A stretch of DNA of 32,893 bases from a virus (taxonomy: Duplodnaviria > Caudoviricetes), in the IMG/VR virus record IMGVR_UViG_3300023105_000106, positions 1-32,893 of that record; one strand, given 5' to 3'. Shown one piece after another: positions 3,158-25,695 of this stretch (within the stretch, counting starts at the first letter, position 1; every line of letters starts with the position of its first letter). Position numbers and translations under genes: made by a program. The notes under the pieces were generated by a model, which made no database searches, was not told where the DNA came from, and saw only the letters and a program-made list of their open reading frames with translations.

Positions 3158-3832
3158 ATGGGCATAATTCCTTCAAGACAAGAACTTAGTAAATTCTTTG
3201 ACCATCATCCAATTCTTGGTACTTTCATTTTCATTAGTGCGGCATTTACTGGATTTGAAACCGTAAGGGCCATTACTGCACCAAAAGGACAAGGTCCGTT
3301 CTCGGGACTAGGTGGGTCTTATTCACCAAACTACATGACTCGTTCAACGCTATCTTCTATGGAGCAAGACGTTAAGTCTTTGCGAAATCGCATTGATACT
3401 AACGCAAAGGTACCAGATTGGGCCGAGTCTTACATCTATACCGCAGGCGACCGAATCAACAGTGTTGATGATTATATGACCCATCGTAGCGGACTAGGCG
3501 GGTCCACATCAACTACCACTTCCACTAGCACTTCACACAGGGGCTTTCGTCGTCCTATGACGCAAGACATTATGATTCCACGGCAGATTAACGCATCTGA
3601 TTTCTTTGGCGTTCCTACCCAAGCCCTTGCTAATCTAGGTTCCGCGAACCTGCCCCCCGCTATGCGTCGTCGGGTCAACCAGCGACAACGCGGAACTGCT
3701 TCGCTTGGCAATGCCGGTGTTCAGCCAATCGATGTAGCAGATAACATGGACCGTAGCGGCTACAACAGTATGTCCGACCTATACGGTCTAAACGGTATCG
3801 TTCCTCAGCCCGGTAGCGGGTGGACGGAATGA
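3158..3832 (+). CDS. Putative virion membrane protein with repeated GLGG/LG motifs
   Basis: N-terminal TM (PILGTFIFISAAF); SGLGGS twice; helical segment (M..TLSSMEQDVKSL...VPDWAESYI...SVDDYM) of a type I recall from phage hypothetical proteins. Confidence 0.6.
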   Translation: MGIIPSRQELSKFFDHHPILGTFIFISAAFTGFETVRAITAPKGQGPFSGLGGSYSPNYMTRSTLSSMEQDVKSLRNRIDTNAKVPDWAESYIYTAGDRINSVDDYMTHRSGLGGSTSTTTSTSTSHRGFRRPMTQDIMIPRQINASDFFGVPTQALANLGSANLPPAMRRRVNQRQRGTASLGNAGVQPIDVADNMDRSGYNSMSDLYGLNGIVPQPGSGWTE

Positions 3833-19132: not shown

Positions 19133-19429
19133 ATGGTACGCGCTATTGATATGAAATATTACGCCCTTGAACCCCTGAACGAAATCCTTGGTAACAAGAA
19201 GATTACCCGAGGCCAAGCAATGAAGAAAGTGTGGGCGCACATTGACAAGTACAATCTGAAGGGCGTTGAAGGCGACACGGCCAAGTACAAGGGGAAGACA
19301 TACAAAGGCGGTCAAGTCATTTTCGTCGGAGATGACCCAATTCTAAAGGAAATCTGCAAAGGCAAAAAGAAAATTGTCATGTTTGAATTAACCGCTTACA
19401 TGAACAACTACCTTGAAAGCGCTGAATGA
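19133..19429 (+). CDS. SWIB/MDM2-domain protein
   Basis: LNEILGNKKITRGQAMKKVWAHIDKYNLK...DDPILKEICKGKKKIVMFELTAYMNNYL matches the SWIB pattern (L..ivG....sR.evvk.lW.YIk.nnLq...D..L..if......mf...k.l..h). Confidence 0.8.
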   Translation: MVRAIDMKYYALEPLNEILGNKKITRGQAMKKVWAHIDKYNLKGVEGDTAKYKGKTYKGGQVIFVGDDPILKEICKGKKKIVMFELTAYMNNYLESAE

Positions 19430-19438
19430 GGGAACAAC

Positions 19439-19606
19439 ATGGCTAGGGTGAATACAGGCAAGGTAATGCACTTGCATGTACTCACGGGTGCTGAAAGAGA
19501 TGCCCTTACTCCAACCAAAGGAATGATAATTTACAACAGTACTACTAACAAGTTGAACTTTTACAACGGCTCGAATTGGAGAGCCGTTGATGATAGTGCT
19601 GTCTGA
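19439..19606 (+). CDS. 55-aa stand-alone fibre-type beta module (not in ORF track)
   Basis: MARVNTGKVMHLHVLTGAERDALTPTKGMIIYNSTTNKLNFYNGSNWRAVDDSAV; the RDAL..G.I.YNSTT.KL.FYNG..W pattern is typical of phage fibre/spike modules. Confidence 0.65.
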   Translation: MARVNTGKVMHLHVLTGAERDALTPTKGMIIYNSTTNKLNFYNGSNWRAVDDSAV

Positions 19607-19660
19607 GGAAAGTTCATAACCAGTAGCATTATCCGAGAATTGCCCTAAGTACTATGCACC

Positions 19661-19756
19661 GGGGCGAGGGTTAGCATCAAGTACGAAGGGTACGGGTTTT
19701 CGGTTGCTCGTGGACACCTCCTTTCTTCCAGTCCAAGCATTTCTCCCCCTCGCCCC
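19661..19756 (+). ncRNA. Candidate structured small RNA
   Basis: Perfect 10-bp terminal stem GGGGCGAGGG (19661-70) / CCCTCGCCCC (19747-56); internal TGGAC/GTCCA hairpin; upstream GAAAGTTCATAA BRE/TATA-like element; no credible ORF. Confidence 0.45.
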
Positions 19757-19763
19757 ACCTATT

Positions 19764-19778
19764 CTTTATGACCGACCT
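19764..19778 (+). promoter_or_regulatory. tRNA promoter CTTTATGACCGACCT
   Basis: TTTATG lies 31 nt before tRNA G1. Confidence 0.55.
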
Positions 19779-19795
19779 GAAGGTACCGTAAGGTT

Positions 19796-19872
19796 GGCCT
19801 TATAGTGTAATTTGGATATCACTCCGGCTTGCGGAGCCGGTAATCGGGGTTCAAATCCCCGTAGGGCCGCCA
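19796..19872 (+). tRNA. tRNA-Arg (anticodon GCG), CCA encoded, no intron
   Basis: Acceptor GGCCTTA/TAGGGCC; D loop with GGA (A20 Arg identity element); anticodon stem CCGGC/GCCGG with loop TT-GCG-GA; T arm CGGGG-TTCAAAT-CCCCG; discriminator G then CCA. Confidence 0.93.
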
Positions 19873-19916
19873 TATTCAACATGTAATTTGATAAACTAGT
19901 TTAACGAATAACAAAT

Positions 19917-19955
19917 TGCCCGGAAGCCTCCCGGGCCGGCGCGTACTTCCGGGTA
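19917..19955. other. GC-rich hairpin between convergent transcription units
   Basis: TGCCCGGAAG / CTTCCGGGTA 10-bp stem with one G-U pair. Confidence 0.35.
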
Positions 19956-19995
19956 GGTCATCTTTCAGCCTCTCTCACCTTGCGTGCCGGTCCAC

Positions 19996-20292
19996 CTAAT
20001 TCAAGAACACAGCGATAGCGCCGTTCACTACAAACCCGACTACTAACAGATATTGCGTTATTTTCCAGCGGTATTCGATTTTTCGAATTGAATCCTGAAC
20101 TAGGGGATTCAAATTATTTCTAAATTCTAAAAACCGCTTTTCTGTTATGGAATCTAGATTCTGTAAGATATTTTCCAAGTCTTCGCGCATCTCATCGGTC
20201 AAGGACACGTTCAGTGTAACTTCGGGTTTGAATGGCCCTGCGCCCTTCGTTGCACCTTTGGCGAACTCGCCCAGCAAGTCTTTCATGTCCAT
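19996..20292 (-). CDS. Coiled-coil protein with C-terminal TM
   Basis: AGGAGG RBS before ATG 20292 (MDMKDLLGEF...); C-terminus YLLVVGFVVNGAIAVFLN. Confidence 0.65.
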   Translation of the reverse strand: MDMKDLLGEFAKGATKGAGPFKPEVTLNVSLTDEMREDLENILQNLDSITEKRFLEFRNNLNPLVQDSIRKIEYRWKITQYLLVVGFVVNGAIAVFLN

Positions 20293-22545: not shown

Positions 22546-22961
22546 TGGCGATTTACGTATTTGAAGTAGGAGAATATGTCAAAGTAGGATTTACTGCAAG
22601 GGACAACATCTGGAAAAGAATCAACGAAATTTGCTATGGCCCAAAGCCAATTGGGAAGGACCTCAAAGGTACAGAACCGGAAGACTGTACTCCCTTATTG
22701 TGGATTCCAGCCGGTACGATAGAAGAAGAACAGCATTTTCATGCTCTTTTCAAGCGCAACGTCAAGATGGGCCGAGAATGGTATCCTGTATCAATGGCCG
22801 GTACTATTCTGTACATCCTTACATCGTGCTTTGGTCTTAATGGTTGTATGGTTGATTATGAAATCGAATCATGGATTGATTACTGCGTGCGAATGGAAAG
22901 AGAACGGTTTGCTAAAGAAGTGGAATCCAATTATGCCGATATACCGGAGGCTTTACAATGA
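22545..22961 (+). CDS. T5orf172/MUG113-type GIY-YIG-like protein
   Basis: IYVFEVGEYVKVGFT...KRINEI...EEQHFHALFK...GREWY. Confidence 0.7.
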   Translation: MAIYVFEVGEYVKVGFTARDNIWKRINEICYGPKPIGKDLKGTEPEDCTPLLWIPAGTIEEEQHFHALFKRNVKMGREWYPVSMAGTILYILTSCFGLNGCMVDYEIESWIDYCVRMERERFAKEVESNYADIPEALQ

Positions 22962-25482: not shown

Positions 25483-25695
25483 ATGAAGAAATACGTACTG
25501 ATAGAGAAGAAATTGAAAGCGGGTAAAGAAACCTTGACACTGTCCAACATTGAAGTGTCAGTCCTTGGCTCGTTTAACCATGAGAACGAATTGCGCGCTC
25601 AATTGAAGGTGATGAAGAACCTTCAAGACGCTGGTCGCCTAGACCCAAAAATGAGCATGGAAGTACTTGAGGTGGACTTCGATGGAGAAGCCTGA
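25483..25695 (+). CDS. Hypothetical protein
   Basis: AGGAGG RBS, ATG start. Confidence 0.55.
   Translation: MKKYVLIEKKLKAGKETLTLSNIEVSVLGSFNHENELRAQLKVMKNLQDAGRLDPKMSMEVLEVDFDGEA

Follow-up and report, generated by a model that had tools for sequence, protein, structure and literature searches.

The described RNAs closest to the locus reported here are of bacterial, archaeal and viral origin. S. aureus RsaE and RNAIII and Salmonella CyaR are small stable RNAs of about 110 nt that expose an unpaired C-rich word able to pair with Shine-Dalgarno (SD) sequences; in the portion of PMC2790875 that deals with them, the unpaired C-rich motifs of RsaE and the loop of CyaR bind SD sequences. In archaea, sRNA162 of Methanosarcina mazei is a cellular trans-acting RNA with a specific extended target, which, according to the part of PMC3510493 devoted to it, masks a ribosome-binding site (RBS) through a single-stranded linker. 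Among viral RNAs, plant-virus TLS ends are pseudoknotted, comprise 12 bp and are completed by the host CCA enzyme, and in the TYMV TLS (valine) a pseudoknotted terminal helix is followed by the discriminator and CC (PMC7749636, in its account of these ends). By their annotation, RNAC and RNAD of T4 (species 1 and 2 RNA) are stable viral RNAs of small size, about 120-140 nt, and directly adjoin a tRNA-Arg gene.

The DNA analysed here, referred to as the window, is a stretch of 32,893 nt, positions 1 to 32,893 of the Caudoviricetes record IMGVR_UViG_3300023105_000106, a virus record rated 24% complete. Between a 55-aa gene, which ends at 19606, and a tRNA-Arg(GCG) gene, it holds a predicted small RNA that we call E1, and behind the tRNA stands a shorter paralog, E2. 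Small size and an SD-pairing word, in E1 predicted to be unpaired, are traits that E1 shares with RsaE, RNAIII and CyaR, but those RNAs are bacterial and chromosomal and consist of hairpins with an intrinsic terminator, whereas E1 is viral and archaeal, has a pseudoknot of two helices, P1 and P2, and carries a wobble-rich word. The masking of RBSs in trans that is proposed below for E1 recalls sRNA162, although E1 has no Rfam sequence match and no extended common target was found in three viruses. E1 also ends as the TYMV TLS does, in a pseudoknotted terminal helix followed by a discriminator and CC; unlike that TLS, the E RNAs have no T-loop, no anticodon arm and a variable helix, and they are separate small RNAs and not a genome end. 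Like the two T4 RNAs, E1 adjoins a tRNA-Arg gene, but RNAC has a tRNA-type T arm and, by the helix list, neither T4 RNA has long crossing P1/P2 helices; the phage collection gave no E-RNA sequence match to RNAC or RNAD. When the window and four homolog loci were compared with Rfam 15, only the tRNA passed the gathering threshold, with no match between the E RNAs and the RsaE, RNAIII and CyaR families; the best non-tRNA match in the window was ncr1175 on E2, at 27 bits against a cut-off of 60. A search of the literature, mostly outside subscription journals, found nothing relevant on archaeal viral anti-SD RNAs. The E RNAs would likely work like RsaE, CyaR or sRNA162, but outside those families.

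Judged by sequence comparison, E1 and E2 are an uncatalogued family of knotted viral small RNAs in two size classes, from viruses of probably Poseidoniales; the fold is backed by covariation in 14 sequences, and the anti-SD feature is statistically supported, if unproven. The features of the locus are the following.

19613-19619, plus strand: promoter box TTCATAA, of the viral TTNATA/G class; the predicted E1 start follows 29 nt downstream, at conserved spacing
19642-19760, plus strand: E1, predicted 119-nt pseudoknotted small RNA, from nine distinct sequences and the fold
19642-19657, plus strand: P1 5' strand, pairing with 19674-19691, from the duplex and shuffles
19661-19670, plus strand: P2 5' strand, inside the P1 loop, from pair exchange
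19674-19691, plus strand: P1 3' strand, from the fold
19692-19711, plus strand: P3 hairpin with loop UUUCGGUU; five pairs, 100% paired in five sequences, two of the pairs with double changes
19712-19734, plus strand: P4 hairpin with pyrimidine loop ACCUCCUUUCUUCCA (19716-19730), the anti-SD loop of the first-pass annotation
19735-19746, plus strand: linker with CAUUUCU (19738-19744), predicted unpaired, holding the best-kept YAYYUYY word
19747-19756, plus strand: P2 3' strand, from pair exchange
19757-19767, plus strand: tail ACCU and U-rich tract, a predicted terminator (inferred role) that overlaps the tRNA promoter
19765-19771, plus strand: tRNA promoter box TTTATGA; a box stands 30-32 nt upstream of the tRNA in 9 of 10 loci examined
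19796-19872, plus strand: tRNA-Arg(GCG) with encoded CCA, from ARAGORN and Rfam tRNA; starts 36 nt 3' of E1
19888-19894, plus strand: E2 promoter box TTGATAA, from sequence comparison
19918-19997, plus strand: E2, 80-nt paralog with an E1-type knot, from five sequences
19918-19926 with 19946-19954, plus strand: P1 of E2, from the fold
19933-19945 with 19981-19993, plus strand: P2 of E2; folding z of the P2 region -4.5

Related loci were gathered by protein scans and tRNA-pattern scans; 12 of the 14 metagenome loci were examined, and 10 extend to the tRNA. Removal of identical copies left nine distinct E1 sequences (window, L144, L125, L126, L141, L149, L150, L133 and L165), which together with five E2 sequences (window, L125, L126, L140 and L141) make up the 14 RNAs considered below. 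They are 78-130 nt long, and each virus has one or two of them; no E2 was found in L144, L151, L173 (of the L133 type) or G005:C22. A strict scanner for the knot gave nine hits in the nine viral stretches scanned, all of them E1 or E2. The covariance model R1 recovered E1 in the close group and in L149-L151 but failed to find it in L133 and L165, for which reason its negative results count for little. The more distant relative G006, which is 79% complete and has an ATPase 50% identical, possesses the tRNA with its promoter, and no clear E RNA was found in it. At G006:C1 102652 (plus strand, in L188), a promoter box is followed by crossing perfect helices of 8 and 10 bp without the ACC tail; this could be a distant E-like RNA, but the relaxed knot scan behind it gives some 2 hits by chance in every 100 kb. 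Scanning viral contigs for an exact 14-mer returned 119 loci, and among the matches listed only the identical virus L014 agreed beyond the motif, many others being ordinary reverse-strand RBSs. The phage GenBank collection gave DNA matches at the tRNA level only and none for the SWIB protein, and the GTDB scans gave no relative of a neighbouring 247-aa protein and, via TFIIB, one related viral contig inside a bacterial MAG. Six sample numbers of the contigs were not found in four supplement files of Fremin et al. 2023 (PMC10690425), a study in which the family may still be listed.

The window encodes a thermosome, TFIIB, a family B polymerase, a serine recombinase and a SWIB-domain protein. 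Since one homolog of the 247-aa protein is labelled Candidatus Poseidoniales and viruses of Poseidoniales have been reported with thermosomes (PMC11706807, in its passage on such genes), the host is probably Marine Group II (Poseidoniales), an assignment that rests on that one label. No match to terminase, portal or HK97 capsid was obtained among the 52 window proteins. By its gene content the virus, of about 140 kb as estimated from the completeness figures, may belong to a non-tailed lineage unlike the described magroviruses. A 258-aa P-loop ATPase with HerA/FtsK-type matches and a very weak Pox_A32 match is encoded at L160:17194-17970 (G003, the same virus as the window) and is also kept in G001, G002, G004, G005:C22 and G006. 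The 101-kb contig G005:C22 of this virus group (L164, L165) lies within a genome titled Flavobacteriales MAG, where it is probably mis-binned. A leaderless SWIB/MDM2-domain gene (19133-19429) is kept upstream of the RNA cluster in seven aligned viruses and was not found in G006; the slot directly before E1 (19439-19606) holds differing tail-fibre-like genes of 55-223 aa in the relatives, and the RNA behind it is kept. Elsewhere, behind a 308-310-aa gene, there is a conserved structured intergenic segment (L161 about 3550-3730; G003 22550-22730), present at the same place in G001 and G002, in which GCAGUAGUCGG pairs with a downstream CC(A/G)ACUACCGC and GC-rich hairpins lie inside; a second structured stretch follows an Arg-rich gene. 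These segments are possibly further RNA elements.

The predicted topology of E1 is that of a pseudoknot, in which the P2 5' strand lies within the P1 loop and its partner is the 3' end of the RNA. The first-pass annotation had proposed a small RNA with a 96-nt segment closed by a perfect 10-bp GC stem. A small RNA is supported by the comparison, but those limits are too short, the predicted start at 19642 lying 19 nt before the stem, and the stem, although kept, is crossed by the pairing of the 5' segment with 19674-19691. In the window the P1 duplex has an energy of -17.7 kcal/mol, equalled by 0 of 1000 shuffles, and P1 beats its shuffles at p <= 0.006 in 14/14 RNAs. A structure-anchored alignment of the 14 RNAs keeps the outer four P1 pairs intact in 56/56 cells, with the exchanges GU/AU/GC, CG/UA and CG/UA/GC, and the outer six P2 pairs in 84/84 cells, with up to five pair types per column. 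A MAFFT alignment of five E1 sequences is 84% paired with three double changes, inner P1 being misaligned (25% paired). The alignment of five E2 sequences has 100/100 cells paired and three pairs with double changes, against 35-49% in slid controls. With only five sequences, such counts are modest by themselves, the paired fraction being attained by 15 of 500 shuffles.

What lies between P1 and P2 is variable. Seven E1 have two hairpins and a linker, with another arrangement in L133 and L165; in the inserts of these two, a loop CUUCGG or UCUUGG with a downstream CCGAGG makes a second possible pseudoknot. The P4 hairpin is present in 7/9 E1; its stem is built from another sequence in L149/L150, and the sequence of its loop varies. 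In E2, which stands behind the tRNA or a tiny ORF, the insert is one small U-rich hairpin and a linker with UCACCU, and the tail is ACCU. Across all 14 RNAs the unpaired segments consist of 66-88% pyrimidine, while their sequence drifts. Crossing helices of 9-13 bp inside a closed loop make these RNAs good candidates for a threaded topology. In HDV-like (theta) ribozymes, P3/L3 follows the P2 5' strand and precedes the P1 3' strand; such a ribozyme was considered and rejected, as the E RNAs have only 0-4 nt at that place and no Rfam match. Likewise rejected was a likeness to RNase P (GAGGAAAGUUC), for which GAAAG is present in only 2/9 E1.

The motifs to which the first-pass annotation had pointed are all present: GAAAGTTCATAA at 19608, GGGGCGAGGG at 19661 with CCCTCGCCCC at 19747, TGGAC at 19711 with GTCCA at 19731, and ACCTCCTTTCTTCCA at 19716. 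Perfect 10-bp inverted repeats within 150 nt number 5 in the window, where 30 shuffles average 4.1, the folding z is -1.74 for the 96-nt segment and -0.18 for 19608-19780, and ACCTCCT occurs once on the plus strand of the window. Within the window alone the motifs are at chance level, and it is their conservation, as read from the compared sequences, that establishes the element as real. We regard E1 as very probably a real RNA gene. The pseudoknot, the tRNA-Arg 36 nt downstream and the paralog at 19918-19997 are absent from that annotation.

The proposed BRE/TATA-like promoter stands in part: TTCATAA is its conserved part (a box of this class is present in 14/14 RNAs), but the BRE-like GAAAG occurs in 2/9 E1 only. 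A TTNATA/G box is located 28-30 nt upstream of the first paired base in all 14 RNAs, and 29-31 nt before leaderless ATGs; it is found at 0.6% of random positions. Because a box stands at a fixed distance before each of them, E1, the tRNA and E2 appear to have separate promoters of their own. The E1 transcript is predicted to start at G19642, exactly where P1 begins. With knot and box in 14/14 RNAs, the comparison bears out a predicted promoter-bearing viral small RNA of conserved structure. The accompanying view of translation in this virus also agrees with the gene starts, since 21 of the 42 listed window starts carry a GGAGG, GAGGT, AGGTG, GGTGA or GGTGG word and four starts have a promoter box 30-31 nt before the ATG and no SD (leaderless genes). 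Overlapping the E2 promoter is a near-palindromic (self-matching) AT-rich stretch at 19882-19913, a possible protein-binding site. Between tRNA and E2, L126 (7557-7664), L125, L140 and L141 have a leaderless Cys-rich ORF of about 35 codons. In L126 and L141 a promoter box stands 29 nt upstream of its ATG, and in the window the ORF is reduced to a short remnant at about 19877-19885.

The ACCUCCU loop of P4 had been taken for a displayed anti-SD sequence. As a conserved element it did not withstand comparison: exact ACCUCCU is found in 2/9 E1 (window and L144), CCUCCU occurs in the L125 loop, and the inserts of L126, L141, L149 and L150 have no CCUCCU. Because the loop varies among homologs, all heptamer targets were tested for pairing with the predicted-unpaired segments, G-U allowed, against shuffles of the segments; near-duplicates (L150 and E2 of L140, and from the set of 11 also E2 of L141) were left out. 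The capacity to pair with SD sequences was supported in this form. No heptamer can pair with more of the RNAs than GGAGGUG and its wobble twin GGGGGUG, at 10/11 against 2.96 expected; GGAGGUG ranks 4 of 1961 heptamers, the three above it being found in only 5-6 RNAs. It is pairable in 7/7 RNAs of one de-duplicated set (2.43 expected) and in 5/6 lineages other than the window (1.68 expected; p 0.003, or about 0.01 corrected for four SD heptamers), the last being close to an a-priori test, since the SD had been named before the homologs were seen. GGAGGUG does not pass the family-wide threshold in two de-duplicated sets (p 4e-4 and 3e-3, where the 5% points are 3.5e-5 and 7.4e-5), three neighbouring SD heptamers show no enrichment, and all of these p-values are optimistic because the RNAs are related.

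A YAYYUYY word is present in the insert of 14/14 RNAs, in some overlapping helix strands, and the best-kept site of anti-SD type is the linker before the P2 3' strand (CAUUUCU in the window). Exact words of the 16S tail occur in separate lineages, namely ACCUCCU (window), UCACCUCC (L165) and AUCACCU (E2 of L125); the 16S tail sequence used is that of the first-pass annotation and may not be the host's. Pairing energy to the SD complement is better than the shuffle mean in 13/14 RNAs, with p < 0.05 in five, and L133 pairs worse with the SD than its own shuffles do. The wobble-rich duplexes are weak, at -6 to -15 kcal/mol. In the three viruses scanned for targets (window, G001 and G002), no orthologous target reaches the first ten ranks throughout; the 70-aa gene at 25483 does so in the window (second) and in G001 (fifth) but not in G002. 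Genes led by SD words, among them candidate structural genes, lie on both sides of the genome, and this weakens the case for a simple early-to-late switch; with no common target gene found either, the clean switch envisaged in the first-pass annotation is not supported.

Our preferred reading, quite possible and held tentatively, is that E1 and its relatives are stable trans-acting RNAs that pair with SD sites of the GGAGGUG type and likely damp translation initiation. E1 would be transcribed from its own promoter as a free 119-nt RNA, late in infection, and the pseudoknot, by burying both RNA ends in helices, would make it stable. The knot is predicted to leave the C/U-rich YAYYUYY word unpaired, and this word would bind GGAGGUG-type RBSs of mRNA in trans; masking of the SD would then repress translation initiation on targets that may be host or viral. 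Sequence comparison shows the parts on which the scheme draws: the fixed-distance promoter box, the covarying crossing helices, the second copy in some viruses and the GGAGGUG pairing capacity. SD masking does not explain the invariant GG...CC-AC end.

Proteins that bind or cut the 16S 3' tail, Sm-like protein and the U-tract-reading terminator aCPSF1 are candidate partners in a second explanation, in which the knot serves as a stable scaffold for C/U-rich strands that titrate away a nuclease or RNA-binding protein of the host, so that translation is protected or read-through becomes possible. The persistently pyrimidine-rich unpaired segments in 14/14 RNAs despite sequence drift and the lack of a common mRNA target suit such a decoy, and a look-alike of the 16S tail that protects ribosomes would suit a largely SD-led virus. 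Against it, the word varies from C to U, a change tolerated in pairing to G, although the word was chosen by that very pattern, and the partners named above are candidates only. We consider a protein decoy unlikely on balance, while ranking it first among the alternatives.

A broader form of anti-SD action is somewhat less probable still: the threaded, end-protected RNAs would mimic the 3' tail of 16S rRNA and compete generally with the ribosome for SD sites, shifting translation to leaderless messages of the same promoter class. A global block of SD sites would affect the virus too, since SD-led genes, candidate structural ones among them, are numerous in it; this objection bears on the preferred reading as well.

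The invariant end that SD masking leaves aside would be explained if P2 and the ACC tail imitated an acceptor stem, the RNAs serving as substrates of the CCA-adding enzyme or RNase P, or as decoys for attackers of tRNA 3' ends. P2 ends in G-C, G-C and then G-C or G-U in 14/14 RNAs, the tail is ACC in 13/14 and ACU in one, the RNAs flank a tRNA gene, and P2 reaches 12-13 bp in E2, L133, L150 and L165, as in the 12-bp plant-virus ends. However, P2 has 9-10 bp in five E1, giving no fixed 12-bp acceptor/T stack; 10/14 sequences have no internal T-loop word, and in the other four the word lies in the E2 terminator region behind the tail (three) or in a P1 strand (one). There is no anticodon arm, ARAGORN calls only the tRNA-Arg, G3-U70 is found in only 4/14, and the fourth position of the tail always holds U or C and never A. 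Mimicry of a tRNA end is improbable in our view, and we turn to expression with the trans-acting SD-pairing RNA still as the preferred reading.

Words of the region were found in 21 salt-marsh RNA runs, which may represent one campaign. Among seven RNA runs compared, contigs that come from the upstream genes and enter E1 end at 19749 (X2), 19747 (X3), 19749 (X4) and 19750 (X20), as they would if E1 acted in cis on the late mRNA upstream, stabilising its 3' end or forming a terminator structure. X1, which may be DNA or source, covers the entire stretch; X21 covers 19562-19712, X19 misses E1, and X19, X21 and X22 stop short of the 3' end. The tRNA and E2 are covered by no RNA run except X1, a gap that proves nothing. 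As every RNA contig over E1 begins upstream of 19642 (the shortest contigs seen are 151 nt), the contigs show read-through and a possible 3' boundary, a weak hint, and not the free RNA. A role in cis is at odds with the box in 14/14 RNAs, the start of P1 exactly at the predicted transcript start and the tRNA or tiny ORF that precedes E2, and a strong stem may, through a library effect, cut contigs short by itself; we judge this role distinctly improbable.

The pRNA of phi29 has a size like that of E1 and its own promoter, and folds as a nested three-way junction with a short loop-loop pairing. A structural or packaging RNA, with an intermolecular P2 forming rings as in that pRNA, would fit the length of about 120 nt, the own promoter and the position at the end of the structural gene block, and a 9-13 bp helix in a closed loop would be topologically demanding within one molecule. 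The three-way junction differs from the E1 knot, however, and Rfam gives no match to a pRNA family; lengths range over 78-130 nt with one or two copies per virus, and G006, which has the ATPase and is 79% complete, has no clear copy, so that we regard packaging as very unlikely. A hairpin arisen by chance, or an RBS serving a small ORF on the reverse strand, has a negligible probability, for although the single-sequence statistics are unremarkable, the covarying knot and fixed promoter recur in 14 RNAs, the SD-like words on the reverse strand of the window E1 are followed by no start codon at a distance of 4-14 nt, and the reverse frames of the homologs are not common to them.

If the anti-SD role is true, an archaeal virus would control translation initiation by RNA, and the family would offer a direct test of the weight of SD pairing in marine archaea. 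If the general competition with the ribosome is true, it would be a virus-made, RNA-only translational switch in archaea, belonging to a lineage of large archaeal viruses.
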